Source of the DNA: Gemmatimonadota bacterium
GTDB taxonomy: Bacteria; Gemmatimonadota; Gemmatimonadetes; Gemmatimonadales; GWC2-71-9
Direction: 5' to 3'
DNA: 20,949 bases
Assembly: GCA_039588295.1 (NCBI GenBank)
Contig: JBDHAB010000159.1
Location: 1-20,949 of the forward strand
In this document: positions 7,294-20,949 of the stretch, piece after piece
Position numbering within the stretch: position 1 is the first letter of the stretch
Layout: each line of letters opens with the position of its first letter
Translations under genes and position numbers: made by a program
The notes under the pieces: generated by a model
What the model saw: the letters and a program-made list of their open reading frames with translations, nothing else
What the model was told of the DNA's origin: nothing
Databases searched by the model: none

Positions 7294-7566
7294 AGAGGAC
7301 TCCTCAAAGCTGGGGGAAGCCGAAGGGGCGCAAGCTACCGAGCAGTGCGGGTCTTGCCAACCCCGACAGCTTTCGTCGGACAGGCGGATTTGGGTGCATC
7401 GGCTCGGTGCGCCGGCGGAACTCGCGAATAAGCAGCTATGCTTACGTGTAGCGGTGAGTGGAGTCGGCGGTGCGAGGAAGGTGGACAATGGCGGCCGACT
7501 GTCGTTGCATCCATGGTCACGCGTCGCCACATACAAACGCAGACAGGACACAACGGGAGGCACCAG

Positions 7567-8358
7567 ATGAGTCATCGACACAGGCGGGTGACGGGCGGAG
7601 TCGCGCTGGCGGCTGTCGTGAGTCTGTTGGGGTGCGCCAGCAGCGGCACCACGCGAAGCATGGAACCGGCCGTCGCGCCGTCGCTTGCCGCGCACGGCGT
7701 GTACGCGCGCTACATCGAGGCCATGGGCGGGCGGGCTGCGCTCGAACAGTACACGTCGACACACGTGGTCGGTCAGTTCCTCATGCCGTCCCAGGGCATC
7801 GACGGAGACCTGGAGGTGTTCGCGGCGGCGCCAAACCGGATTGCGATTCGCGTCGACATCCCCGGCTTTGGCACGGTGAACAATGGCTTCAACGGTGAGG
7901 TGGGTTGGACCATCAACCCGGCGGTGGGATCGTCGGTCCTCGAGGGAAGGGCGCTCAACCAGATGCGCCAGGAGGCGGACTTCCTCGGTCCACTCAACGT
8001 CGAGGCGTACGTCGACACCGCGGAGGTCGTCGAGGACACGGAGTTCGAGGGAAAGATGTGCCACAAGGTCCGCGTGGTGACGCGGTGGGGTGAAGAATAC
8101 GTCGAGTTCTATGACGTCGCGAGCGGCCTTCTGATGGGGGGAATCCGCGCGCAAGAGTCGCCGATGGGCCCGATGGAGACCACCACCGTGCTGTCCGACT
8201 ATCAGGAATTCGGCGGGATCATGATTCCGACGCGTATGGTGCAGCGGACGGCGGGGGTGGAACAGGTCATTACCGTCAGCGCCGTCGACTATGATACCGT
8301 CGATCCCGCCGTGTTCGCCGTGCCTGAGGAAATTGAGAGGCTGCTGAAGAAGCAGTAA
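7567..8358 (+). CDS. Putative lipoprotein, beta-rich (LolA-like/lipoprotein-sorting type, function unknown)
   Basis: GGGAGG RBS before ATG 7567; lipobox LLGC; RYIEAMGGRAALE N-terminal motif and SDYQEFGGIMIP...FAVP C-terminal motif, which I associate with this group of exported proteins. Confidence 0.7.
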   Translation: MSHRHRRVTGGVALAAVVSLLGCASSGTTRSMEPAVAPSLAAHGVYARYIEAMGGRAALEQYTSTHVVGQFLMPSQGIDGDLEVFAAAPNRIAIRVDIPGFGTVNNGFNGEVGWTINPAVGSSVLEGRALNQMRQEADFLGPLNVEAYVDTAEVVEDTEFEGKMCHKVRVVTRWGEEYVEFYDVASGLLMGGIRAQESPMGPMETTTVLSDYQEFGGIMIPTRMVQRTAGVEQVITVSAVDYDTVDPAVFAVPEEIERLLKKQ

Positions 8359-8382: not shown

Positions 8383-9600
8383 TTACCCGGTCCGGTCGAG
8401 GCGCCCCTCGGCTTGTCGAGCGAACCGTCTCCAGGCGCGTCCGATCCAGAGGGCCAAGGGCCAGGCAATGAGACACAGGATCGCCCGATGCATGAGGCGC
8501 ACGGCGCGCCGCCATAGCATGCCGATCGGGGGACTCAGGCGCTCCACCGACCCGACGATACGGTAGGCAGACGGCCCGGTCGACGGTACCAGCAGTCGGG
8601 CCCACAGCGAGCGGCGCTCCTCGCGACCGGCCTGGATGGCGAACACCCACTGCACCAATTGGTGAACCTCGAGGAAGACGCGGCGTCGACCTGCCCGCCG
8701 CATGATCTCGTACATGGCGTACCGCGAGAATGCGACCGACTGGAAGGCATCCACCACCGGTGCTTCATTGGCAACGGCCTCGGCCATGTCGAAGTACAGG
8801 CCAAGCGGTTTGGCGAAGCGATCGGCGCGCGTGCGCCGGCGGATTTCGGCTCGCTCATCCAGCGAGCACGCTCCCAGCCCATCCGACAGCAGTACGACAT
8901 CACGCAGCCGGCCGCGTCGATTGAAGTGAGCCGCAGTGGCGTGGTAGCACAGGTACCAGGCATGTTCCACCGGTTCGAGTCCAAGCAGGCCAGGTGCCAC
9001 CGCAACAGCACGCTTCCACACATGGTCGGGGGTGGGAGTCCCATCCGCTTCAGTGGTGTGATGCACTTCGACAGGCATGGCGCCGTCAATGTACTGGGCG
9101 GCGGCGTGCCTGGTGGATGCGTACCGCCCCTCGCCTGCTGAGCGCGTACGGAGCCAGGCGATCACTGCCGGCATATCGCCTGCGGGCACGAGCATGTCGA
9201 GGTCGGCAAGACCCAGTACGAGGCTCGACCCGCGTGCCAGGGGCACGCCACCCTTCAACACGAGGACCCGCCACCCCCGTTCCGTTGCCGCCGTTCCAAT
9301 CTCGTCCAGCTGCGCACGAGCACGGAGCGCCCGCAGCGACTCGACGCGCCGGTGCTTAGCCAGCGGCTGTCGCACCTCCTCCGGCAGGTCTCGCAGGCGG
9401 TCGACCCGCTCCAGCCTCGCCGCCACAAGAGCGGCACAGCGCTCGGTGCGGAGGAACACGTCCCACGCCACCGGTGACGCCTCCACCGCCCTGGCCCACC
9501 GGGCTGCGTCGATTTCCTCCTGAGGCCCGAGGATGTCGATGGCGAGGGCGCGGACTGCCATCGCCTCGGCGGCCACTCGGATCGCTGTCAGCTCACCCAT
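8383..9600 (-). CDS. Nucleotidyltransferase family protein (NTP_transf_5-like)
   Basis: VLVLKGG...LADLDMLV (LKG plus DxD), VEVHH and RLRDVVLL motifs. Start placed at ATG 9600 (MGELTA), overlapping the upstream gene by 13 nt. Confidence 0.85.
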   Translation of the reverse strand: MGELTAIRVAAEAMAVRALAIDILGPQEEIDAARWARAVEASPVAWDVFLRTERCAALVAARLERVDRLRDLPEEVRQPLAKHRRVESLRALRARAQLDEIGTAATERGWRVLVLKGGVPLARGSSLVLGLADLDMLVPAGDMPAVIAWLRTRSAGEGRYASTRHAAAQYIDGAMPVEVHHTTEADGTPTPDHVWKRAVAVAPGLLGLEPVEHAWYLCYHATAAHFNRRGRLRDVVLLSDGLGACSLDERAEIRRRTRADRFAKPLGLYFDMAEAVANEAPVVDAFQSVAFSRYAMYEIMRRAGRRRVFLEVHQLVQWVFAIQAGREERRSLWARLLVPSTGPSAYRIVGSVERLSPPIGMLWRRAVRLMHRAILCLIAWPLALWIGRAWRRFARQAEGRLDRTG

Positions 9601-10109
9601 CGAACCGGACTCACTCGGCCGCGCAGCGAGATCCGCACCAGCGCAGCAGCAAGGCGGGGATGCAGTGCGAGCGCCAGACGCACGACCGTCCGCCAGAGGG
9701 AACTTCGCCAGGTCACCGCCCGAGCCAACGGCGAACGAGGCGGTACCGCGCGCCACTCCTCGTCCTGGTGCCGCGCCGTCACCGGCCCGAGTATCAGTTC
9801 GATGGGGACCGGCGGATCACAGAGCACCAGGCCGTCTCCCTGGGTCAGAACGAAGCGACGGTTCCAGGGCATGGAACCGCGCGCCGCGAGGCGGTGTGCG
9901 ACGAGGCCTCCCGGCGTTACGATCGCGACCGTGGTCCCGACTGACGGCAGAGCCGTCCGTGGCTCGATCCGAATTCGCGCGCCGCTGAGGATCGCAGGCT
10001 CCATGCTCGCCCCATCAATGACCGACTCGATCTCGCGACCGCTGCGGCGCAACAGGTCGATCCGGGCGCGGAGCTGTTGAGGCGGGACGTAGATGTCGTC
10101 GGTGGACAT
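9588..10109 (-). CDS. S24/S26 family peptidase
   Basis: GASMEP (catalytic Ser box), VAHRL (His general base) and TQGD, as in Ser/His-type signal peptidases; no N-terminal membrane anchor. Alternative GTG start at 10112. Confidence 0.82.
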   Translation of the reverse strand: MSTDDIYVPPQQLRARIDLLRRSGREIESVIDGASMEPAILSGARIRIEPRTALPSVGTTVAIVTPGGLVAHRLAARGSMPWNRRFVLTQGDGLVLCDPPVPIELILGPVTARHQDEEWRAVPPRSPLARAVTWRSSLWRTVVRLALALHPRLAAALVRISLRGRVSPVRWVS

Positions 10110-10122
10110 CACATCCCGAGCG

Positions 10123-11193
10123 TCACGCCGCGCGGATGTGCGACGCAGGCATCAGGTACGGGCCGACGGTCTGGCGCACATGGGGATTACGGAACGCCCA
10201 TACGAGGCCGTCGATGTAGAAGTGAATGAGCGCGAGCGAATTCCACGCGATGATGTAGGCCATCGGAGCCCCCAGCAGGGCTGTCGTTCGCTCACCGAGG
10301 AAGATCAGCAGTCCGACCCCAATGACCGTGGCTACAACGGTTCGCGGGTTGGCGCTCATGCGCGCGAGCAGGCGCTGAGGAGCGGAGCCGGCGGCGGACA
10401 CGTACTTCCGGTGGTTGAGCAGCCACACGATTGCCAGGTACTGGATGAAGTGCCCGATCAACATGCCGAGCGTGGCGAGCCCCGCATCCTCGACCCAGAG
10501 GTAGGGATGGAACAGGAGCAGACTGGTTGCCAAGAACGCGCCTTCGGGTACGCTGAGCGCGTGCGACCGCCGGAGCAAGCGATATGCTAGCAGCCCGACT
10601 GAGGCGACGGCGATGGGCAACGTGATGGCCGGCAGTACCCACGGTAGGACTGGGTGCACCGAGCTGAGCACGCCATACAATGGCGCAAATCGATCTGCGT
10701 GCCAGAAGGCCATCGTCGCGTTAACCGACAGGATGGCCACACGCGCCACCGATCGCTCGGCAGGTGGCCCGTTGTTCAGACGTCGGTAGATCGAGAGGAT
10801 ACCATGACTCTGTTGGCTGACGTGAAAGATGTTCCACACGAACATCGTCACCATGACGGGAGTGTGCGCTCCAGAACCCCGTAGCAGAAGCACCGACGTC
10901 GCGATCACGACCGGTCCGCCGTAGAAGAGCGCGAGGTGCCGCCGGTAGTACTGTCGGTTGTCGTCACCGAAGAAGAAGCTGAACGACGACATGTAATGGG
11001 GAATGGCGAGCAGAAAGGTGACGGCCGCCACCATCACCGTTCCTCCGGGCAACGTCAGCGCCCAGAGGACGGCAAGCGTCCCGATCAGCGGCGACAGAAT
11101 GAACAACCCCAGATCGAACGGGGGAGACTGAATCCAGCCGCGCGCCGCCGTCACACCCACTGCTGGCCCATGGGACGCCGCGACTGTCGTCAT
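10123..11193 (-). CDS. Multi-pass membrane protein with four His motifs, putative membrane metallo-oxidase
   Basis: Roughly 9-10 hydrophobic segments; IPHYMSSF, WNIFHVSQQSHG, GHFIQYL and IHFYIDGLVW motifs; CAGGA RBS. The CDS is clear but the function is inferred. Confidence 0.7.
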   Translation of the reverse strand: MTTVAASHGPAVGVTAARGWIQSPPFDLGLFILSPLIGTLAVLWALTLPGGTVMVAAVTFLLAIPHYMSSFSFFFGDDNRQYYRRHLALFYGGPVVIATSVLLLRGSGAHTPVMVTMFVWNIFHVSQQSHGILSIYRRLNNGPPAERSVARVAILSVNATMAFWHADRFAPLYGVLSSVHPVLPWVLPAITLPIAVASVGLLAYRLLRRSHALSVPEGAFLATSLLLFHPYLWVEDAGLATLGMLIGHFIQYLAIVWLLNHRKYVSAAGSAPQRLLARMSANPRTVVATVIGVGLLIFLGERTTALLGAPMAYIIAWNSLALIHFYIDGLVWAFRNPHVRQTVGPYLMPASHIRAA

Positions 11194-11221
11194 CGTCCTG
11201 CCGAGAGTCCGCCTGCGAACC

Positions 11222-11989
11222 TCAGGATGCGGCCTGCCGCTGGAGAATAGCCCGCCGCCGCTCCTCGTTCTTTTCGTGTGTGCGCTCGGCCGCGGTTTGC
11301 GGGAAGCCCGCCTCGATCCGTTCCTCGACCGCCATCGGGTACTTCGTCACCTCACCGCCGCCGCGCGCCGTCACCCATGCCAACCCCTTGAGCGCGTTTG
11401 ACACCGCCCGAATAACCTGCATCACCACACCGGGGTCCAGGGCCACCTGCTTGTGGATCCATTGGTTGGCGTATTTGACGTGCAGTACTTCGTCCGCCTG
11501 CTGGATCTCGTACATGGCGACCACCTCATCGTCGCCCGCCGCCTTCGCGTCCCGAATCGCCTGCGTGACCGCATCCAGGCCGTCCGCTTCGAACGTCCGG
11601 TTCTCCACCGCAAACCGACCCGGCAGGTTGTCGATGCGCCCGAGGATCTTGTACTGGAAGTTCATGATCGGATAGCGACCGATCTTCCCACCGCGCCTCT
11701 CATACAGGCGCTTGTACGCGGCGGTGTGGCGGGCCTCGTCCGCCGCTTGCCGCGCAATGCCCTTGCGAATCCCCCACTCCACGTCGGGAAACTCAACCAG
11801 GTTGCGGGCACAGTTCTCGAGGACATTCAGCTCCTCGTTCATCTGCCGATGATAGAACTCGATCTCATGCTCGGGATCGTCCTCCGGCAGGTTGACGCAG
11901 TCCGCCCACTGGTCGACGACCGTGAAGCGGTCGTCGCGGGCCGGGCCGTCGCCGAACAAGGCGGGGTCGGGTACGCTAGCGCTCGCCAT
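11222..11989 (-). CDS. DUF455-like ferritin-like diiron protein (paralogue B)
   Basis: Full diiron ligand pattern NEE..., DEARH, FEA, DEVLH and C-terminal ERIEAGF motif. Alternative GTG start at 11992. Confidence 0.85.
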   Translation of the reverse strand: MASASVPDPALFGDGPARDDRFTVVDQWADCVNLPEDDPEHEIEFYHRQMNEELNVLENCARNLVEFPDVEWGIRKGIARQAADEARHTAAYKRLYERRGGKIGRYPIMNFQYKILGRIDNLPGRFAVENRTFEADGLDAVTQAIRDAKAAGDDEVVAMYEIQQADEVLHVKYANQWIHKQVALDPGVVMQVIRAVSNALKGLAWVTARGGGEVTKYPMAVEERIEAGFPQTAAERTHEKNEERRRAILQRQAAS

Positions 11990-12782
11990 CACGCTTCCCC
12001 CGGCCCGGCAAGATCGACTGAAATCCGGCCTTCTTCAGCACCTCCATGACCTCTTCCTCGGTGAAGTCGGCCTCGAGCCGACCCTCGACGTTGATCTCGA
12101 CCTGAAGTTTGTGCTCCTGTACCTTGGTTCCCGCAGCGTCGACCGCATCTTCGTCCACCTGCATGGCCCCGTTGGCCTCGGCGAGGAACCGGACGGCCTT
12201 CGCCACTTGCAGGAGAACCATCGGGTTCTCTTCAGTCATACGGCGAATCCACTGATTCGCGAACCGGACGTGTGTGATTTCGTCGGCGAGAATGCCGTCG
12301 AGCACATCGGCCGTCGTGTTATCCCCGACCTTGCGCCACACCTTGCGCAACGTGCCCAAGATGTCGATCAAGCCCGCTTCGAACGTCCGGTTCTGAATGG
12401 CGAGGCGTCCGGGCAGATTGTCGATCATCAGGGTCACACCCCACTCGAAGTTGGCAACGGGAAACTCACCCTTGTCACCCCCCATCTGCCGGAGCCGCCG
12501 CAAGAGCACCTCGGAGTGCCTGGATTCGTCGGCGCACTGTCGAGCGAGACGCATCCGCAAGTCCCACGGCGCGTCGGGGTAGTCCGCCAAACACTGGGCC
12601 GCAATCTCGACGGCACCCGTCTCGTTGTTCATGTGCCGATGGAGTTTTTCGCGTCCCGCCTCCCCCTCCACCCCCGGCCAGTTCTTCATATCGATGTCGT
12701 GATGGACGACATCGAAACACGCTTCCCGGGCCGGGTCCTTTCGGAGCGTTACGCCGCGGGCGACTTTCGTTTCCTGGGACAT
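11976..12782 (-). CDS. DUF455-like ferritin-like diiron protein (paralogue A)
   Basis: NNE..., DESRH, FEA, DEITH and INVEGRLEADF; shares IDNLPGRxAxxNRTFEA and ANQWI with paralogue B. Confidence 0.85.
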   Translation of the reverse strand: MSQETKVARGVTLRKDPAREACFDVVHHDIDMKNWPGVEGEAGREKLHRHMNNETGAVEIAAQCLADYPDAPWDLRMRLARQCADESRHSEVLLRRLRQMGGDKGEFPVANFEWGVTLMIDNLPGRLAIQNRTFEAGLIDILGTLRKVWRKVGDNTTADVLDGILADEITHVRFANQWIRRMTEENPMVLLQVAKAVRFLAEANGAMQVDEDAVDAAGTKVQEHKLQVEINVEGRLEADFTEEEVMEVLKKAGFQSILPGRGKRDGER

Positions 12783-12791
12783 GGCGTTCCC

Positions 12792-13331
12792 CTATCGCTC
12801 GCGATAGTCGACGAAGTCCGACACCCCGGTCATTGCCGCACGCAGAGCATCGAGCCAGTCGGCCCGACCAGCGGGCAGCTCGGGCCGCTCACGCCGCATG
12901 GCATCCCGTTCACTCTGCATGCGATCGATGTCGGTCAGCACCCGCTCGAGAATGCGCACCGACGGCTCATCGACCATCGTGTCCGTCTGGTCGAGGTAGC
13001 TTCGGTAGCGGGACACCAGGTCGGGCAACGCGACGTCATAAAAGCCGTCGATGCGGTCACCGGTCTCGCTCGTCGAGGCAAGCGTCCGCAGGGCCTGAAG
13101 GTAGGGCACGACCGGCTCCCGCGTGAAGTGCATCGCGGCGCGCAACTCGTGCGTGCGCCGACCAAACTGATCGGCGTGCTGGGCGAACTCCCAAATGTGC
13201 CGCCCCATGAGAATCTTGACTTCCAGTTCCGGGGTGGTCGGGACCCACCGTGCCAACGTCTCCATCAGGAAGACCGACATGTGTCGGAATGTCGCGACCC
13301 AATCCGCCCGTTCCTTAACCAGCGTAATCAT
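12792..13331 (-). CDS. Short ferritin-like four-helix protein with degenerate metal ligands
   Basis: PELEVKILMGRHIWEFAQHADQFGRRTHEL aligns by eye with PWDLRMRLARQCADESRHSEVLLRRLRQM of paralogue A; second ExxH is absent; ATGA overlap with the kinase stop. Confidence 0.65.
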   Translation of the reverse strand: MITLVKERADWVATFRHMSVFLMETLARWVPTTPELEVKILMGRHIWEFAQHADQFGRRTHELRAAMHFTREPVVPYLQALRTLASTSETGDRIDGFYDVALPDLVSRYRSYLDQTDTMVDEPSVRILERVLTDIDRMQSERDAMRRERPELPAGRADWLDALRAAMTGVSDFVDYRER

Positions 13332-14386
13332 GTTCCCCCAAAGCTACGTTCGATGAGTGTAATGGTCTCCTGCGGGGTACCCGCGGTCAACCGGTGCCAC
13401 TGAACGGCGGACGCGAGCTTGAAGAGGCGCAGCATCTTGAGTCCCGACGCCGCTGAAACGGGCGTTGATTTCACTGGTGCCACGTACCGCACGTTCGTCG
13501 AGTCGGCCGCGAGGGCCGTCAGGCTCGGTTCGTCAGCCAGTCCATCGAGAATCACAATGTGCTCCAGCGGCACCGGCTCGCCGAGCGGAGCAGTATTGAG
13601 AGCGTCGGCGGCGACCAGCGTCTTTGTACTCCCATCGGCGAAGCGCTCGACCGGAAGGCCGGGAGCCTCGAGCAGCGGTTCCGCCGCGCTGTCGAGCGGG
13701 CCCGGCCGGACGCCTGCGGCTCTCGGAAAGGGCAGGAGCGACGGGCCGTCGAGTCGGATGGCCCCCACCTCGTCACTCAGGAACCCGTGACCTCGGGCCG
13801 CGAGCCCAACCGACAGGGTGGTCTTGCCCGCTTCTCGAGCGCCGACGAGGAGGACACCAGTTCCCCCGAGCTCGACGGCCGCTGCATGCACGAACAGCAC
13901 ATCGGGCTGGACGCACATGGCACGATGGACCAGAACGGCACCCGCGACATAGGGCCACGGGGCGTCGGGCGCGACGACAAGGTCTGAGCCCCGCACCGCC
14001 ATCTGCCACCGGGGATCGGCCGTGGACGCCAATCCGACCCAGTCGCCCTCGCCCCCCACGCGGCGAACTCCGTCATCGGCAAAGATCGCCTCGGTGAACC
14101 CTGCGGGGTCGGACAGCGGCTCCCCGTCGGCGGAGAGCAACACGCCGGTTCTCCCCGGATCGACCGTTACCGTTGCCTCGACTGTTGGCAGACCCGCTTG
14201 CGGTGCCTCCACGGTGCACCCACCGAATAGCACAGCGAAGCGGTCCAAAAACGAGCCGTCACCGGTCCGTATTGACACAAACGCGTCGCCGAATCGATAC
14301 CAGCATCTGTCTCGAGGAACCGGCATAACAGCAAGGCGGGCGGCCAGCGAATCCGCTGCCGCCCACCATGCAACATCGCCACCCAC
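13328..14386 (-). CDS. HprK-related Ser/Thr kinase (RiPP-associated)
   Basis: HAAAV, Walker A GAREAGKTT, LSDEV and LLPFPR motifs. GTG start at 14386 is uncertain. Confidence 0.85.
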   Translation of the reverse strand: MGGDVAWWAAADSLAARLAVMPVPRDRCWYRFGDAFVSIRTGDGSFLDRFAVLFGGCTVEAPQAGLPTVEATVTVDPGRTGVLLSADGEPLSDPAGFTEAIFADDGVRRVGGEGDWVGLASTADPRWQMAVRGSDLVVAPDAPWPYVAGAVLVHRAMCVQPDVLFVHAAAVELGGTGVLLVGAREAGKTTLSVGLAARGHGFLSDEVGAIRLDGPSLLPFPRAAGVRPGPLDSAAEPLLEAPGLPVERFADGSTKTLVAADALNTAPLGEPVPLEHIVILDGLADEPSLTALAADSTNVRYVAPVKSTPVSAASGLKMLRLFKLASAVQWHRLTAGTPQETITLIERSFGGT

Positions 14387-14402
14387 GACGTGGGACGTCA
14401 GA

Positions 14403-14534
14403 TTACATCATCCACCAGCCGCTCATCCCCGCGGTGGTGATCTGGAAGACCTCGAGGACTTCCTCTTCGGTGAGCACCGTGACGGCCGGTGCAATGTACT
14501 GACCCCGCTTCTGCTGCTTGGAAGACTGTGCCAT
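14403..14534 (-). CDS. RiPP precursor peptide, 43 aa: MAQSSKQQKRGQYIAPAVTVLTEEEVLEVFQITTAGMSGWWMM
   Basis: AGGAG RBS at 14544-14540, 5 nt before ATG 14534; lies directly after the PqqD/RRE gene; basic N-terminus plus YxxPxV RRE-recognition motif. Confidence 0.85.
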   Translation of the reverse strand: MAQSSKQQKRGQYIAPAVTVLTEEEVLEVFQITTAGMSGWWMM

Positions 14535-14550
14535 CATCACTCCTGTCGCG

Positions 14551-14820
14551 TTAGGTCTTGTCGACAATCGAAAGCTGCACCAGCTCCTCCACCGCCGCCT
14601 GGACATCCGCCTGTGCCTGGTCGAATTCGACTCCATCGTACGCTTCGGAAATGTCCGTCGCGAGTTCGGCCACGGAGCGTGGCTGCTCGAGACGTTCCCA
14701 CATGAACGCCGCCGTCCCGTCCAGGCGGCAGAACTTCTTCGTATCCTTATGGTAGAGCAGCGTTTCGCCCTCCATTGGCGCCTGTTCGATGCCCTGGGCT
14801 CGCTGATAGACCGCGCTCAT
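14551..14820 (-). CDS. PqqD-family stand-alone RiPP recognition element (RRE)
   Basis: About 89 aa; ETLLYH...FCRLDGTAAFMWERLEQPRSVAELATDISEAYDGVEFDQAQADV...EELVQLSIV matches the three-strand/three-helix PqqD pattern; AAGGA 9 nt before ATG 14820 (alternative start 14829). Confidence 0.93.
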   Translation of the reverse strand: MSAVYQRAQGIEQAPMEGETLLYHKDTKKFCRLDGTAAFMWERLEQPRSVAELATDISEAYDGVEFDQAQADVQAAVEELVQLSIVDKT

Positions 14821-14829
14821 CGCATTCAT

Positions 14830-14919
14830 TCCTTAACGGTGGATTGCATAATCTCTATAGATTTAGTCGATTTTTCAAGGTGAGCCGACCCACATTCAAT
14901 TGTCCGGGAGCGGGCTGAC
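14830..14919. promoter_or_regulatory. AT-rich divergent promoter region between the RRE operon and the Asn-synthetase-like gene
   Basis: Markedly AT-rich tract (14843-14878) between divergent starts; TTGAAA on the minus strand (14878-14873); inverted repeat AATCT-CTAT-AGATT at 14850-14863. Confidence 0.55.
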
Positions 14920-16809
14920 ATGGCAGGTCTGGCCCTCGCCGTCGGCGTCGATGACGCGAATGTCGCTGGGCTGCTCGCGCGCCTCGACCGCGCGCAGGCG
15001 CACCGGGGACCCAGTGGGCACTGGCTCCTCTCGTCTGGTGCGACTGCGAACCCCTTGACCGGGCCGCTTACCGTCCAGCCGCATTCCACCGAATGGGCCC
15101 CGACCGTCGGCGCTGCCTTCCGCGGTCCGGGCGCCGACCGACGGGACCCACCCAGTCGGATCTGGGCAGCGGTCGATGGGTTCCTCACGAACCGCGCCGC
15201 CCTCGCCGACCAGCTCGATGTGCCGCCCGACGCCGAGACTTCGGCTGTCGTCGCGCGAGCGTACGAGCGCTGGGGACCGGCGTGCGTCGAGCGGCTCGAG
15301 GGCCAGTGGGCCCTGATCGTGTGCGACCTCGAGCAGGACCGGTCCTTCGCAGCCCGGGACCACCTCGGCATCGGACAGCTGTATTACTCTGCTGACGGGA
15401 ATCACGTTCTGGTGGCGTCCGAGCCGAAAGCCGTCGCGCGCGCCCAACCCGCGGGACCGGAGATCGAGCCGGTCCGGTTCGGGGAGTTCCTGAACGGCTT
15501 CCCTCCCACCACACCGGAGTTGTCGTTCTTCCGCGGCGTGCAGTCGATTGCCGCGGGGGCGATGCTGCGCATCGAGCGCGCCACGGAAGGCGCCCCGCGC
15601 GTCCAGATCGACCGGTATTGGGACCCTCGGGCACTGCGGGGGTGGACCATGTCCCCACCGCCGTTCACCGACGCGGCGCGGCGATTCGAGACGCTGCTGG
15701 TCACCGCCGTGAGGCGTCGGGGGACGCCGGGCGAGACGGGCGCCCTGCTCTCGGGAGGACTCGACTCCTCCGTGCTCGCGGTAATCGCCGCTGAGTTCGC
15801 AGGCACTCGACCGCTGCCGAGCTTCTCGATCTTGCACGCGGATCCCGACCTCACGGAGGAGCGTCATGTGAATGCGGTGGTGGCACACGCAGGTCTCAAG
15901 AGTCACACGGCGACGATCCGACCCGCGGACGCGTGGCAGGCTGTCGACGCGGTCGTGACGGTCCAGGGGGAACCGTTACTCGGTCAGGACCTCATCGGTC
16001 AGTGGCACGCCTACCGACTCGCGGCAGAGCACGGGACGCGTTCGGTGTTCGACGGTATCGGCGCAGATGAACTGCTGGCCGGCGTGGGCACAGAGAGCCG
16101 CTACTTTCGCGACCTCCTGTTGGACGGAGAGTGGCAGGAGTTCGCGCGCGAGGTGCGGGCGTTCGGAACGCGACATGAGGTATCCCCAGTGCGCACGCTC
16201 CGCCGGTATGTAGCGGGCCCCCTCAAGCGCGAGCTGTCATGGGCGCTCCGCCCACGGCGATACCGATGGCTCTCCCGCGATCTGCCACCCGATCCATACC
16301 GCGATCGTCTCCGCACGGACGTGGCCCCAGACCATTCTCTGCTGAACGGATATCTCTACCGGCATGTCCGGCACCAGAATGCGCCGACCGTCTTGGGTCG
16401 CCTCGACCGGTGCGCGGCCGCGCACGGGCTACGGTCGCTCGTCCCGTATCTCGATCGCAGCGTGGTGGAGTGGTGTCTACCGCTCCCAGGACGCTACAAG
16501 GTGTTCCGCGGACAACCGAAGCGTTTGCTCCATTCCGTCGCTCGCCGTCACCTGCCGGCCGAGGTTGCCGACCGGAGGGACAAGCAGGGCATCGTGCCAA
16601 CGAAACCCTGGATGGCAGTCCGCACCGAGTTCGCCGAGGCGTTTCGCGCGGTGCCGCACGAGCGTCGGGTGCGCGAGTCCGGTTGGATCGACCCACGAGC
16701 GGCGGAGCGCTTCATCGAGGGCTACCTCGCGGAGCGCCACACCGACCACCTCGGCGTGTGGCGGCTGTTCACGGCCTGGCGGTGGCTCGAGCTGTTTCGA
16801 CTGTCGTAA
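14920..16809 (+). CDS. Asparagine synthetase-like protein with inactive-looking glutaminase domain (lasso cyclase-like/ATP-dependent amide ligase)
   Basis: PP-loop LLSGGLDSS, DGIGADELLAG, VPYLD and RRDKQG are intact. N-terminus is MAGLAL (no Cys1) and VDGFLTN replaces xNGEIYN. Confidence 0.88.
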   Translation: MAGLALAVGVDDANVAGLLARLDRAQAHRGPSGHWLLSSGATANPLTGPLTVQPHSTEWAPTVGAAFRGPGADRRDPPSRIWAAVDGFLTNRAALADQLDVPPDAETSAVVARAYERWGPACVERLEGQWALIVCDLEQDRSFAARDHLGIGQLYYSADGNHVLVASEPKAVARAQPAGPEIEPVRFGEFLNGFPPTTPELSFFRGVQSIAAGAMLRIERATEGAPRVQIDRYWDPRALRGWTMSPPPFTDAARRFETLLVTAVRRRGTPGETGALLSGGLDSSVLAVIAAEFAGTRPLPSFSILHADPDLTEERHVNAVVAHAGLKSHTATIRPADAWQAVDAVVTVQGEPLLGQDLIGQWHAYRLAAEHGTRSVFDGIGADELLAGVGTESRYFRDLLLDGEWQEFAREVRAFGTRHEVSPVRTLRRYVAGPLKRELSWALRPRRYRWLSRDLPPDPYRDRLRTDVAPDHSLLNGYLYRHVRHQNAPTVLGRLDRCAAAHGLRSLVPYLDRSVVEWCLPLPGRYKVFRGQPKRLLHSVARRHLPAEVADRRDKQGIVPTKPWMAVRTEFAEAFRAVPHERRVRESGWIDPRAAERFIEGYLAERHTDHLGVWRLFTAWRWLELFRLS

Positions 16810-16815
16810 GTGCCG

Positions 16816-18747
16816 TCAGAGAGCGACGGTTACTCCGAGCGCCTCCCGCCAGAGATCGAACCCCACCAGCCGCCACACGATGAACAGGTCACGCTGCGAA
16901 AGCGGCGCGCCGCTCCGTATCGCATCGAGCCGCTGACGCACCCACGCCGGCGAGATCCCGGGTATCGCCGCCACGCGCTCGAACCGCCGAGCCACATCCG
17001 ACACCGCGCAGGCCCAGGTATGGAGTGGGACGGACAGGCCGATCTTGGCGCGACGGTCAGAGACGGCAGCGGGAAGGAGATCGTGGACGGCGCGACGGAA
17101 CACGTACTTGCCCTCCCCATGCGGACCCACGAGGTGCTCCTCTGGGAGGGCCAGGCAGAACTCGACGAGCTCCGGCAGCAGGAACGGCAGCCGACCTTCG
17201 ATCGACGCAGCCATCGTGTTGCGATCCTCCCAGCGCAGGATGGCTGGCAGGCTGGCGGCGAGGTACCGGCGCACCAGCGCGCTGAGGCTCAGCGGCCGAT
17301 CCAGATCGGCGGCTGCATTGCGAACCATGTCGGACTCGACCGTCAGCCACGGCCAACGCCGCAGCGGTCGGCGTTGTCGCGCCAGCACCCGCGCCGTCTT
17401 GAACAATGTGCCCGCCGCCTGCCTGCCGCGGCGCTTGCTGCCACGCACCAGGGCCGCAACGAGTCGCCCGGCAGTGACGAAGTCTCCGCGACGCAGGAGG
17501 CCCGCAACCCGGAGTGGCACTGCCGCCGGATACCCGGCCAACAGTTCGTCAGCACCCTGTCCGTCGAGCAACACCTTCACGCCGGTGTCACGCGCGTGCT
17601 GGCAGAGCGCATGGTGCACCAGAATGGCGGGACTGCCCATTGGCTCGCCCTGTCGCTTCGCAGCGGCCACGGCCCCGGACCACAGGTCGGCATCCAGGCG
17701 CAGCTTGGACGTTCGACACCCGGCGGCGGCTGACACCAGATCGATCCACGGCTCTTCGCTCTTCGCCTCTCCCGTGCCGATGTAGCTGACGGCGCGCAGC
17801 TCGAGGTCGGCACCGCCGATTTGCCGTTGGGCGAGCACGAGTGCAGAGGAATCCAATCCACCCGAGAGGAGCGAGCCGATGGGCACGTCGCTCCGCAGGT
17901 GCCAGCTCACCGACCGATCGAAGAGGTGGCGCAGCCGGCTCGCCGCCTCGTCCGGCTCCGCTGTCGACTGGGGCCGCCGAACCGGCGGGACCGACCAGTA
18001 CCGTCTCACGTCCCACTCGAGCGACGTCGGGTCGTCGATCTCGATGACCGTTCCGGGGTCGAGCCGTCTCACCCCCTCGATCATCGTGTCCGCGCGATGA
18101 TCCGTTCGCCCGGTCGCCAGGTAGTCCACTGTTGGGTGTAAGGCAGCCCGCACGGCCGTGGGGTGGATTCGGAGAACTGCGGGGATTTCCGAGGCGAAGG
18201 CCAGGCCTCCCACTACGGGGCGCAAAAAAAGCGGTTTCTGCCCCAGGTGATCGCGCGCGAACACCACCGTCCGGCGTTCACGATCGACAATCACGAAGGC
18301 GAACATCCCGGCAAGTCGCTCGAGACACCCGAGACCCCAGCGCTCGTACGCGGCGAGCAGCACCTCGGTATCCGAGCGTCCGCGGAACCCGTATCCCTCG
18401 CGCTCCAGTTCCTGTCTCAGCTCGACGTGATTGTAGATCTCCCCGTTGTAGGCGAGCCAGATCCGCTGGTCGGCAGACGGCATCGGCTGGGCGCCGGCTG
18501 GACCGAGGTCGAGGATGGCGAGCCGCCGGTGCGCGATGACGACCGAGAATTCGAGATCGTCGTCCGCGGCTGGGACGTCGGTGCGCTGTGACGCGGTCTC
18601 GAGATAGCCTAGCCCATCATTGGCGGCCAGGACGAGGAGTGCCTCGTCATCCGGACCACGATGGTGCAGCATGTGGCCGGCAGCACGTACTCCGTCGAGC
18701 ACGGCTTCGGGATGTCCGACGCCGATCCAGCCCGCAATGCCGCACAT
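16816..18747 (-). CDS. asnB: Asparagine synthase (glutamine-hydrolysing) family amidotransferase
   Basis: MCGIAG Ntn start at ATG 18747; HRGPD, HRRLAILDL, AQPM, YNGEIYNH, SDTEVLL, LSGGLDSS, DGQGADELLAGY and EDRNTMAASIEGRLPFL. Family is certain, substrate is not. Confidence 0.9.
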   Translation of the reverse strand: MCGIAGWIGVGHPEAVLDGVRAAGHMLHHRGPDDEALLVLAANDGLGYLETASQRTDVPAADDDLEFSVVIAHRRLAILDLGPAGAQPMPSADQRIWLAYNGEIYNHVELRQELEREGYGFRGRSDTEVLLAAYERWGLGCLERLAGMFAFVIVDRERRTVVFARDHLGQKPLFLRPVVGGLAFASEIPAVLRIHPTAVRAALHPTVDYLATGRTDHRADTMIEGVRRLDPGTVIEIDDPTSLEWDVRRYWSVPPVRRPQSTAEPDEAASRLRHLFDRSVSWHLRSDVPIGSLLSGGLDSSALVLAQRQIGGADLELRAVSYIGTGEAKSEEPWIDLVSAAAGCRTSKLRLDADLWSGAVAAAKRQGEPMGSPAILVHHALCQHARDTGVKVLLDGQGADELLAGYPAAVPLRVAGLLRRGDFVTAGRLVAALVRGSKRRGRQAAGTLFKTARVLARQRRPLRRWPWLTVESDMVRNAAADLDRPLSLSALVRRYLAASLPAILRWEDRNTMAASIEGRLPFLLPELVEFCLALPEEHLVGPHGEGKYVFRRAVHDLLPAAVSDRRAKIGLSVPLHTWACAVSDVARRFERVAAIPGISPAWVRQRLDAIRSGAPLSQRDLFIVWRLVGFDLWREALGVTVAL

Positions 18748-18833
18748 CAGCGGCCCCGAGACTCGGCACCGGCGATCGCAGCCGGTATATTGACAAGCAA
18801 CCGAACCGACCAGAGGGTCTGACGCATCCACTC

Positions 18834-19034
18834 ATGACTACCATCCATCCCGACCGTCCGCCAGCCGACTGGATCGACCAGATGAGCGACGAGCAGTGTA
18901 TGGAGATCTTCTGGCTCTACGTCGATCCGCCGGAGCCGTTTCTCGAAGGGCACCCTCCTGCGCTCCTCGGCCGGGCGATGCGATACGCCCTGCACCAGGT
19001 GGCGGACGAGACCGCGCGGCGCCAAGAGAAGTAA
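18834..19034 (+). CDS. Small hypothetical protein (66 aa)
   Basis: MTTIHPDRPPADWIDQMSDEQCMEIFWLYVDPPEPFLEGHPPALLGRAMRYALHQVADETARRQEK fills the gap between asnB and the ppk2 terminator; protein-like composition, weak RBS. Confidence 0.55.
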   Translation: MTTIHPDRPPADWIDQMSDEQCMEIFWLYVDPPEPFLEGHPPALLGRAMRYALHQVADETARRQEK

Positions 19035-19120: not shown

Positions 19121-20023
19121 TCACTCCTTCTCGAGCGTCTTCTTCAGCTTGGCCAGTTCCTTCCGCGCGGCCGCGTTCACCGTGGGGAACTTGAGGTCCA
19201 ACGATGTGAGCGCGTCGACGATCGCCGCTGCGACGACGACACGGGTAAACCACTTCTTGTCGGCCGGCACCACATACCACGGCGCTTGCTCGGTCGCCGT
19301 GTTCCGGATCATGTCTTCGTACGCCTCCATGTACTGATCCCAATGCTCGCGCTCGGCGACGTCTCCGGCGGAGAACTTCCAGTTCTTTTCCGATCGGTCG
19401 ATGCGGTCGAGGAAGCGTTCCTTCTGTTCGTTCTTTGACACGTGCAAAAAGAACTTGCGAATCGCCACCCCGTTGCGCGTGAGGTGACGCTCGAGGTTCC
19501 GGATATCCTCGAACCGCTCCGACCAGATCTCGTCGGTCACCAGCTCGGGTGGCAGTTTCTGGCCCGCGAGGATTCCGGGATGGACACGCACGACAAGCGT
19601 CTCTTCGTAGTAGGAGCGATTGAAGATCCCGATACGTCCGCGCTCCGGAAGGCGCTTGACACAGCGCCACAGATAGTCGTGGTCCAGCTCCTCTTTGCTC
19701 GGCGCCTTGAACGAGAACACCTGACAGCCCTGCGGGTTGACGCCGGACATGACGTGCTTGATCGCGCTGTCCTTACCGGCGGCGTCCATCGCCTGAAAGA
19801 CCAGCAGCACCGCCCACTTGTCCTGCGCGTAGAGCATCTCCTGCAGCTCCGCCATCGCCTTGACGCCTGCCTTCAGAGCCTTCTTGGCCTGTGGCTTGTC
19901 CTCGGATCCGAGGTCACCCGTGTCGCCGGGGTCAAAATCGGCGAGTCGGAACGCGTCACCGTCGGTGACGCGGTAGGGTTCGGAGAGACGCTGGGCCTTG
20001 CTGGCGAATTTCTCGGACCTCAT
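19121..20023 (-). CDS. ppk2: Polyphosphate kinase 2 family protein (single domain, class III-like)
   Basis: QAMDAAGKDS (Walker A), VNPQG, FKAPSKEELDHDYLWR, FNRSYYEE and APWYVVPADKKW; AGGAG RBS before ATG 20023. Confidence 0.95.
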   Translation of the reverse strand: MRSEKFASKAQRLSEPYRVTDGDAFRLADFDPGDTGDLGSEDKPQAKKALKAGVKAMAELQEMLYAQDKWAVLLVFQAMDAAGKDSAIKHVMSGVNPQGCQVFSFKAPSKEELDHDYLWRCVKRLPERGRIGIFNRSYYEETLVVRVHPGILAGQKLPPELVTDEIWSERFEDIRNLERHLTRNGVAIRKFFLHVSKNEQKERFLDRIDRSEKNWKFSAGDVAEREHWDQYMEAYEDMIRNTATEQAPWYVVPADKKWFTRVVVAAAIVDALTSLDLKFPTVNAAARKELAKLKKTLEKE

Positions 20024-20031
20024 GACCGCTC

Positions 20032-20949
20032 CTACGGCGTCCCGCGCCACGCCGAGTAGTCCACATCCAGCGGCGGCGGAGCGGCATTCCGTTGATCACC
20101 TGGTTGGAGATAGTGGTCAAACCAGCGGAGCGCCCGCAGCGCATAATCGTACCGATAGACGTTCGTCCGATTGCCGTGGCCCTCACCCGGATACCGGACG
20201 TACCGCACGGGTGTCTCCGTGCTGGTCTTGACCGCCCGATAGAGCATATGCGGTTGGCTCGGGTGGACGCGGGGATCGTTCGTCCCGCCCAGGACGAGAA
20301 GGGGGGTCCGGCACTGCGGTGCGTACGTCAACGGGCTGCGCTCGCTCAAGAAGTCCCACTGCTCGTGAGGCCACCGCTCCTCGTAGTGCACGTAGTAGTA
20401 CTCCCAGGGGATGTCGGTGGTGAGCCACTTCGTGGGCACGTGGGTAACCGGCACAAAACTCACGGATGCGGCAAAGTGCTCCGAGTGACGAGTGGCGGCC
20501 CACGCTGCGGTGTAGCCGCCATACGACCCGCCGCCGATCCCGACGCGAGCACGATCGACCCACCCACGCTCGACGAAGTGCGCGATGGCATCCAGATGGT
20601 CCTCGAACTCACGGCCCATCGGATCTCCATGGTCCGCCTTTGCGAATTCGACCCCGCGCCCCGTGCTCGACCGATAGTTGGGGAACCACACGAAGTAACC
20701 GCCGCGACTCAGGAGCTGACCCCAGCCGCTGTACGTGGTCACCCACTGGTTTCGGTAGTGGCTCTCGGGTCCCCCGTGCGCCACGATCACCAGCGGGTAG
20801 CGGCGGCCCTGCTCGAAGTCCAACGGAGCCAGCAGAATCCCCTCGATCTCCACACCATCGCCGGCTGGGAAGCGATAGACCTCCTGCCGACCCAGGGGAA
20901 TCTCGTCGAGCCATGGATTCGAATTCGTCCGACGAGTCCACGAGCCACC
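20032..20949 (-). CDS. S9 family (prolyl oligopeptidase/acylaminoacyl peptidase-like) serine peptidase, 5'-truncated
   Basis: HGGPES, PNYRSSTGRG, GGSYGG (nucleophile), DPRV and EGHG; the frame stays open to the window end (..TNSNPWLDEIPLGRQEVYRF..). Confidence 0.93.
   Translation of the reverse strand, partial: GGSWTRRTNSNPWLDEIPLGRQEVYRFPAGDGVEIEGILLAPLDFEQGRRYPLVIVAHGGPESHYRNQWVTTYSGWGQLLSRGGYFVWFPNYRSSTGRGVEFAKADHGDPMGREFEDHLDAIAHFVERGWVDRARVGIGGGSYGGYTAAWAATRHSEHFAASVSFVPVTHVPTKWLTTDIPWEYYYVHYEERWPHEQWDFLSERSPLTYAPQCRTPLLVLGGTNDPRVHPSQPHMLYRAVKTSTETPVRYVRYPGEGHGNRTNVYRYDYALRALRWFDHYLQPGDQRNAAPPPLDVDYSAWRGTP

Follow-up and report, generated by a model that had tools for sequence, protein, structure and literature searches.

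Gene content of the locus

This study concerns a gene cluster on a 20,949-nt stretch of Gemmatimonadota DNA, hereafter the window, which is the entire contig JBDHAB010000159.1 (contig C159 of the source genome, G000). The cluster is real, conserved and, as a system, apparently undescribed: it joins a short precursor peptide to a set of processing genes like that of the linear polyphosphorylated peptides (LPPs), and to three ferritin-like proteins. We favour, with a confidence somewhat above even, a reading in which this LPP-type chassis is coupled to a three-subunit ferritin-like oxidase acting on two adjacent tryptophans (Trp-Trp, WW) in the core of the peptide. Nine genes, all intact and each with one terminal stop, run on the minus strand from 14829 to 8383; the first encodes a recognition element (RRE) for RiPPs, peptides that are ribosomally synthesized and then post-translationally modified. 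In operon order (RRE, peptide, HprK-like kinase, Fer3, DUF455a, DUF455b, membrane protein, S24/S26-like peptidase, NTP_transf_5), they are:

14551..14829, minus strand: stand-alone RRE of the PqqD family, 92 aa (PF05402, E 3.8e-15)
14403..14537, minus strand: precursor peptide, 43/44 aa (invariant residues, coding-type substitution)
13328..14386, minus strand: HprK-like kinase, 352 aa (PF07475, Hpr_kinase_C, E 1.8e-5, under cut-off)
12792..13331, minus strand: Fer3, ligand-poor ferritin-like subunit, 179 aa, helical (fused relatives)
11976..12782, minus strand: DUF455 di-iron protein a (DUF455a), 268 aa (PF04305, E 6.4e-26)
11222..11992, minus strand: DUF455 di-iron protein b (DUF455b), 256 aa (PF04305, E 1.1e-20)
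10123..11193, minus strand: four-His membrane protein, 356 aa (no known family)
9588..10112, minus strand: SipW/SEC11-type (Ser-His-Asp) peptidase, 174 aa (catalytic residues, PDB profile matches)
8383..9600, minus strand: NTP_transf_5 nucleotidyltransferase, 405 aa (PF14907, E 2.6e-18)

A nine-gene operon with gaps or overlaps below 30 nt had been proposed by an earlier, sequence-only reading of the window, and it is borne out: the junctions, in order, measure +13, +16, -4, +9, -17, +28, +10 and -13 nt. The peptide, taken there to be 43 aa long, has 44 residues from the first ATG (14537) and 43 from the second. The start of the NTP transferase was placed at 9600, against 9756 for the longer open reading frame (ORF). 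A promoter and terminator scan of the window gave no signal above chance.

Conservation and distribution

Searching GTDB genomes with DUF455a yielded 35 loci from 75 pattern matches, 26 in Gemmatimonadota and 9 in Acidobacteriota, and an alignment search of metagenomes with Fer3 found 358 relatives among 544 matches, the best 80 of which were used. The resulting set comprises 115 loci, many on short contigs, in which profiles match Fer3 in 114, DUF455a in 113, the kinase in 105, DUF455b in 91, the precursor in 76, the RRE in 70 and the peptidase in 69. Twenty-nine loci, with at least 6 kb on either side of DUF455a, are referred to as long loci: all of them carry RRE, precursor, kinase, Fer3, DUF455b and peptidase beside DUF455a, 28 the NTP transferase, and 26 a formyltransferase which is not present in the window. 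The precursor was found in 68 of the 69 loci with at least 1.7 kb upstream of Fer3, the exception, L048, being rearranged, on a contig that ends inside the kinase. L048, L076 and L084 were rejected as precursor-less loci, being rearranged or cut by contig ends; locus L047 has just 79 nt upstream of Fer3.

Among 351 whole genomes of the same phylum as the window, DUF455 is found over cut-off in 13, and the same 13 hold the precursor on the same contig; these genomes are not independent, since all belong to one family. In a sample of 301 genomes around an acidobacterial genome (a total that includes the unpublished genome G503, with a match below cut-off), six have DUF455 over cut-off. The precursor profile was run on these six, the seed G351 and five others: the four with a DUF455 pair, seed included, have the precursor, the two with a single canonical DUF455 do not. 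The sequence-only reading had taken the locus for an RRE-dependent peptide-maturation cluster, and this is supported; the association of the DUF455 pair with RRE and precursor, whose absence elsewhere would have told against it, is indeed found in all long loci and, for DUF455 and precursor, in the 13 genomes.

Unassigned ORFs inside the long loci or within 1.2 kb of them amount to 90, in 55 groups, 45 of which were scanned: no radical SAM, B2 protease, ferredoxin-type partner or MsbA-type exporter was found in this flank scan, in line with the lack of radical SAM and B2 reported earlier for the window. In the long ORFs of these loci, the CxxxCxxC motif matches solely inside DUF455a. Several loci adjoin capsule or extracellular polysaccharide (EPS) genes. 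Locus L145 (7656-11734) features a shuffled order, RRE-precursor-DUF455a-kinase-Fer3-DUF455b-peptidase. Relatives of the membrane protein and of the precursor (P0327, P0452), with nearby locus tags, are named from a 'Candidatus Bathyarchaeia' metagenome-assembled genome (MAG), possibly through transfer or mis-binning.

The precursor peptide

The precursors follow a single plan, made of a YxxPx[VIL] leader, an invariant F-Q, a linker of small residues and an invariant Trp-Trp close to the C-terminus. All 28 aligned precursors share the invariant residues Y14, P17, F31, Q32, W41 and W42; the distance from Tyr to Phe is 17 residues in all 62 distinct strings, while WW begins 9, 10 or 12 residues past Phe and is followed, in 60 of the 62, by one to three residues. 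That F-Q is fixed relative to YxxP, while the distance to WW floats, fits a role of F-Q as recognition site and of WW as the reactive part. The precursor profile detects 460 database clusters at E<=0.01: all 120 matches listed retain the 17-residue Tyr-Phe spacing and WW, and the named ones are annotated as hypothetical. None of the NCBIfam precursor models fits the peptide.

Past F-Q, D, E, K, R, H and Y are all missing in 46 distinct peptides, and a Ser or Thr lies at most two residues before WW in 44 of them; Asp and Glu are absent from this part of all 80 locus precursors, and just one of the 120 database matches listed has one, a C-terminal Glu. The conservation is not due to chance, because DNA changes fall mostly at third codon positions: over 329 pairs, differences at codon positions 1, 2 and 3 are 1241, 634 and 2871, and single changes are synonymous in 2072 cases against 710 non-synonymous. 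A GGAG-type site lies upstream of most precursor copies. By these sequence features, the peptide is recognizable as a translated, selected product, with a predicted leader and a two-residue aromatic core.

A few loci depart from the common picture. In L025, L032, L073 and L111 the precursor is present twice, with nearly the same sequence, before the kinase and by a displaced RRE; the L145 precursor has a Cys before WW; in L041 and L082 the tails after WW are 8-9 residues longer.

Given just two invariant core residues, which lie one to three positions from the C-terminal end of 60 of the 62 strings, and a low-complexity linker, the peptide might also serve as a scaffold: oxidation of its Trp-Trp would be followed by excision of a small molecule or redox cofactor (a quinone, or a bis-indole joined by a cross-link), in analogy with the PQQ (pyrroloquinoline quinone) or pearlin pathways. 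The many tailoring enzymes and the lack of an exporter agree with such a fate. We nevertheless hold it to be unlikely: a single peptidase is conserved, its likely site lies about 6-9 residues upstream of WW, and neither a conserved cofactor-using enzyme nor a second protease turned up in the 29 long loci or their scanned flanks.

The ferritin-like trio

DUF455a and DUF455b, which are 39% identical to each other, score 91.9 and 74.7 bits with PF04305, over its gathering score of 34.3. The ligands E54, E86/H89, E135 and E168/H171 are invariant in 65 of 65 DUF455a sequences, and the same set is found in 30 of 30 DUF455b sequences, except for E86 (29 of 30). A structure model of DUF455a (predicted local distance difference test, pLDDT, 85) is a ferritin-like bundle, tied in its matches between a DPS-like protein (Z 16.0, root mean square deviation, rmsd, 2.0 over 141 residues) and aldehyde-deformylating oxygenase (Z 15.8, rmsd 3.5 over 191 residues); Foldseek found no match to the model at E<=0.001, the best being 1.1e-3. 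A fold of this kind does not by itself establish a function. No DUF455 protein came up among solved structures, where the best match by sequence is bacterioferritin (E 5e-4). Both DUF455 proteins thus have the four-helix bundle with two E...ExxH ligand sets, and share fold and the E...ExxH...E...ExxH pattern with ferritin-like di-iron oxygenases such as aldehyde-deformylating oxygenase, PaaAC, VlmB and the toluene/phenol hydroxylases; they differ from them in that identities are 10-19%, no reductase is found in the window cluster, and the substrate is apparently a peptide.

Fer3 does not have the two ligand sets: E24 is invariant, but the His positions vary. Searches of Pfam and, by sequence, of the PDB gave no match to Fer3. 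Its tie to DUF455 comes from fused relatives, the direct profile comparison of Fer3 with DUF455a being weak (probability 1.6, E 0.032). The Fer3 profile matches 1029 representatives; among the matches listed, 36 relatives reach 290 aa or more, and in 27 of these the Fer3-like domain is followed by a distinct DUF455 domain; the Fer3 profile aligns to the N-terminal domain of the fusions with hhalign probability 100. These N-terminal domains match, weakly, the Pfam families MiaE_2, Phenol_Hydrox, Ferritin and DUF892. Two of the fusions are named from Bacteroidota and Chloroflexota; no fused relative was found in viral contigs, and plasmid searches returned distant DUF455 proteins only. Because natural Fer3-DUF455 fusions occur, the trio of the cassette is read, at the sequence level, as the split form of a wider two-domain enzyme, its catalytic half duplicated, and Fer3 as a subunit that probably pairs with the DUF455 enzymes without being catalytic itself. 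In having few ligands but the same fold as its partners, it is reminiscent of PaaC and of the beta subunits in multicomponent monooxygenases.

At the C-terminus of DUF455a, an acidic helix (12030-12075, minus strand) is faintly similar to the leader's acidic part, the tails of its relatives matching the precursor with E between 0.003 and 9; the likeness could be chance or leader mimicry.

Relation to known systems

To judge from profiles and motifs, the closest known family is that of the LPPs, described in May 2026 (Nat Commun) from the lpp cluster of Paenibacillus alginolyticus and produced with an RRE, a SipW-type leader peptidase, an HprK kinase and an NTP transferase (PMC13381572). Phosphorylation was shown at core Ser3, and RRE-dependent leader cleavage by LppS, a Ser-His-Asp enzyme, after F-3 E-2 T-1; LPPs sit in capsule loci, the role of the NTP transferase and the final product not being established there (PMC13381572). 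The window cluster shares with LPPs a discrete RRE, a SipW-type Ser-His-Asp peptidase, an HprK-like kinase and an NTP transferase, along with a YxxPxV leader, a conserved Phe near the cut, no need of B2 or cyclase, and capsule genes often nearby.

Against the PDB, the RRE family profile has its best match in 9x8z, the LPP RRE LppB (E 1.6e-7), followed by lasso RREs (3.3e-6 to 1.1e-4). The peptidase had been assigned to S26 by the sequence-only reading: the SEC11/SipW type is upheld, the best PDB profile matches being SEC11A/C (E 8e-5), but the window protein matches the S24-like Pfam family with just E 0.057, and 13 of 21 family members do so at E<=1 (best 3.4e-6). Its Ser, His and two Asp (S36, H73, D93 and D99 in full numbering) are invariant in 21 of 21, with Ser/His/Asp spacings of 37/26 against 39/25 in LppS, S29-H68-D93 (PMC13381572). 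It is probably, by this likeness, an RRE-dependent leader peptidase like LppS, and the LPP precedent for a SipW-type leader peptidase explains the missing B2. In the kinase, the G-K of Walker A (P-loop) is kept in 14 of 14 sequences. The match to LPPs rests on the PDB profile match, motifs and spacings rather than on direct alignment to LppS or LppA; by analogy, the window cluster probably works like LPPs in binding and cutting, and probably in phosphorylation as well.

Several traits set the two apart. The LPP leader consensus is YxxPxVLxHQxIxFET, with 13 residues from Tyr to Phe (PMC13381572), whereas here all 62 strings space the two by 17 and HQ is missing, YxxP and Phe being kept. LPPs have Ser at +3; here, with Phe placed at -3, position +3 is Ala in 43, Val in 18 and Gly in 1 of the 62. 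An MsbA-like transporter belongs to LPPs, but none is present in the window or in the scanned flanks of the long loci. The LPP core is long and variable; here it is short and conserved, with its invariant Trp-Trp. Hosts are Bacillota for LPPs, Gemmatimonadota and Acidobacteriota here, and the trio of Fer3 and two DUF455 proteins is an addition of the window cluster. On sequence grounds, we therefore place it outside the LPP family, because of the missing MsbA exporter, the longer leader spacing, the lack of Ser at +3 and of a variable tail. The LPP supplementary files make no mention of DUF455, PF04305, 'Gemmatimon' or any of six precursor motifs, and the word 'ferritin' is missing from the main text (PMC13381572).

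The earlier description of the scaffold as lasso-like is not sustained, as it matches that of LPPs. Phosphorylated lasso peptides (paeninodin, pseudomycoidin, Bsf) share with the window cluster an RRE, an HprK-type kinase, a nucleotidyltransferase, an Asn-synthetase-fold gene and a YxxPxL-type leader (PMC8498205, PMC10368454), but the cluster has neither B2 nor an acidic ring-closing residue, and the Asn-synthetase homologues, two of which lie upstream of the operon, are dispensable across loci. One could still imagine a lasso peptide or other macrolactam, closed by an Asn-synthetase homologue, with the B2 protease provided in trans. Lasso cyclases lack Cys1, and so does the plus-strand homologue of the window; moreover, the genome has a B2-like gene on another contig. 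YxxPx[VIL] occupies positions -17 to -12 counted from the invariant Phe, which is the lasso spacing (PMC10368454). The sequences largely refute this proposal, which we rate as very improbable: there is no B2 at the locus, the core has no acidic residue (a C-terminal Glu in one of 120 listed matches aside), and the lasso cyclase models NF033535 and NF033561 fall short of cut-off, with 193 bits for the plus-strand homologue and 212 for the Cys-bearing one against 525, and 59 and 73 against 300. In addition, these homologues belong to several clades, 8 of the 29 long loci have none of them, and the B2-like gene adjoins a radical SAM gene. PF13471 (B2) was not found on the window contig or in the scanned flanks of the long loci, the two matches of the genome lying on contigs C2 and C4.

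A separate, RiPP-like locus is present in the same genome at C2:176740-182066, where the B2-like (PF13471) gene follows a radical SAM gene and, some 4 kb off, a short ORF has a leader of the WxxPxL type. A second set of RRE, HprK-like kinase and NTP transferase, without DUF455, is found at C35:25378-28083, where a motif scan found no precursor, and a weak peptidase match lies on the short contig C104.

Models for SynChlorMet and HPr-rel-A systems stay below cut-off (TIGR04248 22.5 bits against 100, TIGR04352, for the kinase, 42.4 against 200, TIGR04353 23.8 against 35). RiPPs made by oxidative enzymes of the multinuclear non-heme iron-dependent kind (MNIO, DUF692), such as methanobactin, TglHI, ChrHI and nitrilobacillins, share the use of a multi-iron, O2-using enzyme with a helper subunit (PMC12141560), but belong to another enzyme family, and the window cluster has no conserved Cys or Asp target; no Pfam or NCBIfam match to DUF692 was obtained among 14 window proteins scanned. 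One MNIO cluster features an Asn-synthetase-like C-terminal tailoring enzyme, a precedent for amidation and nitrile formation (PMC13060819). The sequence-only reading knew of no described pathway of this composition. For the enzymes this stands, no RiPP with a DUF455-family enzyme being found in a literature search that lacked most subscription journals, and the term 'ferritin' not being found in PMC7470986, PMC13642348 and PMC11002830; the chassis, however, matches that of LPPs (PMC13381572).

Proposed pathway and alternatives

Gene content, conservation, motifs and fold are results of the analysis; the reactions are proposals. By homology to the experimentally shown system, the RRE would first bind the YxxPx[VIL] leader. 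Fer3, DUF455a and DUF455b, from their gene context, may then act together as one O2-activating di-iron enzyme oxidising both Trp residues, with Fer3 as the non-catalytic partner in the trio. Within this scheme, indole hydroxylation, one paralogue per Trp, would be the leading guess, though short of an even chance; a Trp-Trp cross-link is a possible but less probable outcome, and ring cleavage or some other reaction would come slightly behind it. The kinase would next phosphorylate, again by homology, the Ser/Thr directly before Trp-Trp or a newly made hydroxyl. The SipW-type peptidase is expected to cut behind F-Q-[VI], where Phe would occupy -3 like its LPP counterpart; the core set free would have 9-12 residues, and in the window 11 aa and an unmodified mass of 1257.50 Da. 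Finally, and more tentatively, the NTP transferase and strain-variable accessories might decorate the product, possibly with the Cys-bearing Asn-synthetase homologue amidating the C-terminus, the formyltransferase, in loci that have it, adding a formyl group, and the membrane enzyme carrying out further oxidation. We prefer the coupling of an LPP-type chassis to a Trp-Trp oxidase because the co-occurrence holds in both directions, the leader keeps its register while WW floats, two catalytic paralogues are matched by two Trp residues, and the core lacks other reactive residues.

Various observations weigh against this proposal. Peptide modification by di-iron enzymes is deduced from gene context. 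The loci are related, not independent, and MAGs or metagenomes are the source of every one. If Phe is at -3, Pro would fall at +1 in 17 of the 62 precursors, and Pro at +1 hinders signal peptidases. The 29 long loci and their scanned flanks yielded no reductase, ferredoxin or conserved exporter, although a redox partner or effector is required by many ferritin-like oxygenases (PMC13108848). Accessories are many for a core of 9-12 residues (formyltransferase in 26 of 29 long loci, HTTM in 19, FA_hydroxylase in 14), and capsule or EPS genes lie next to several loci, so that a lipid or glycan product is possible. Around the one fused Fer3-DUF455 relative with a readable context, on plasmid NC_010420.1, neither an RRE nor a precursor is annotated; on present evidence, the module is not peptide-specific.

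Some of these points are also what one would expect if the product were an LPP-like phosphopeptide, merely phosphorylated, cut and nucleotidylated, and the di-iron oxidase a separate, co-selected function, the trio and the membrane enzymes oxidising a lipid, sugar or small molecule, maybe joined later to the peptide or to the cell surface. The wide spread of Fer3-DUF455 fusions, the sole fusion context read, without RRE, the frequency of FA_hydroxylase, HTTM and formyltransferase partners, and the capsule/EPS borders are consistent with it, as is the location of LPPs themselves in capsule loci, their final product not being established (PMC13381572). We regard this as rather unlikely, since the operon is tightly coupled and has the trio placed between its kinase and peptidase genes, trio and precursor co-occur both ways in the 13 of 351 genomes, and an invariant WW is unexplained if Ser alone is modified, LPP tails being variable.

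Returning to oxidation of the core, the chassis has been known since 2026, and the di-iron module and the Trp-Trp core are the new part. That the cluster represents a new RiPP class, defined by a three-subunit DUF455 di-iron enzyme that uses O2 to oxidise or cross-link two adjacent Trp residues, is in our judgement somewhat more probable than not. If the oxidation is true, it would provide not only a new class but also a function for DUF455 and, on the literature searched, the first ferritin-like oxygenase fold in RiPP chemistry. DUF455 is a widespread family without an assigned reaction, here accompanied by a candidate substrate that is itself gene-encoded and 43 residues long, which makes its function directly testable. 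The cluster also extends the LPP chassis (RRE, SipW-type peptidase, kinase and NTP transferase) past Bacillota, suggests that other kinds of chemistry can be built onto this chassis, and provides a second system in which to look for the role of the NTP transferase. Most of its hosts are uncultured Gemmatimonadota and Acidobacteriota, and little is known of the peptides that these make.

Accessory genes and surroundings

The membrane protein was described earlier by its four His residues, and H66, H124, H248 and H324 are indeed invariant in 103 of 103 rows. It has no Pfam family; its model (pLDDT 88) gives no clear fold match (Foldseek best E 0.27, VIA-align best Z 7.8), and its ESM Atlas neighbours point to no family. 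Its sequence makes it a probable membrane metalloenzyme with an accessory role. It is found in 17 of the 29 long loci and an FA_hydroxylase-family gene in 14, one or the other being present everywhere and both in two loci; it could be a second new metalloenzyme, standing in for the FA_hydroxylase-family enzyme.

Outside the operon, the window contains:

14920..16809, plus strand: Asn-synthetase homologue without N-terminal Cys (PF00733, E 8e-54)
16816..18747, minus strand: Asn-synthetase homologue with intact N-terminal Cys (TIGR01536, 359 bits against a cut-off of 267)
18834..19034, plus strand: 66-aa protein, no known family (kept beside related loci)
1-1959, 7438-8358 and 19121-20949: apparent arginine-biosynthesis genes (sequence reading only), unannotated 306-aa ORF, PPK2 (Pfam) and a probable S9-type peptidase fragment (the last by sequence reading only)

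The flanks look ordinary. The two neighbouring Asn-synthetase homologues of the sequence-only reading are both there, each matching Pfam at about 1e-53, but they are convergent, on opposite strands with a 6-nt gap, and lie outside the operon, the plus-strand copy beginning 90 nt from the RRE start. The latter sits in a clade whose other members retain Cys1. Homologues of this kind occur in 21 of the 29 long loci, in several clades, with and without Cys1, and the two-gene layout of the window recurs in L001, L002 and L038; to judge from these sequences, they are variable accessories, not lasso cyclases, the Cys-bearing one being a candidate amidotransferase. The 66-aa gene, just beyond the stretch covered by the sequence-only reading, has 19 matches among 126 loci searched (E<=6e-12), mostly adjoining an Asn-synthetase gene, as mapped through the frame on the opposite strand, and in the window it is divergent from the Cys-bearing homologue; its product, which has no Pfam match, is possibly a partner of the amidotransferase. 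A minus-strand ORF at 18750-19025 was dropped as a gene, being a shadow of this plus-strand one.

In other loci, an HTTM-domain protein with a small membrane partner is found, usually by the formyltransferase (for example at L030:1911-3466), in 19 of the 29 long loci, and L144 has three such pairs, which we take to recall the SdpAB pair. Lineage-specific inserts include an Asp/Asn beta-hydroxylase-like cupin (L146:5615-6343), a PhyH protein with a methyltransferase and ABC-2 (L047:4401-7948), and a GDSL-like hydrolase (L144:5673-6776).

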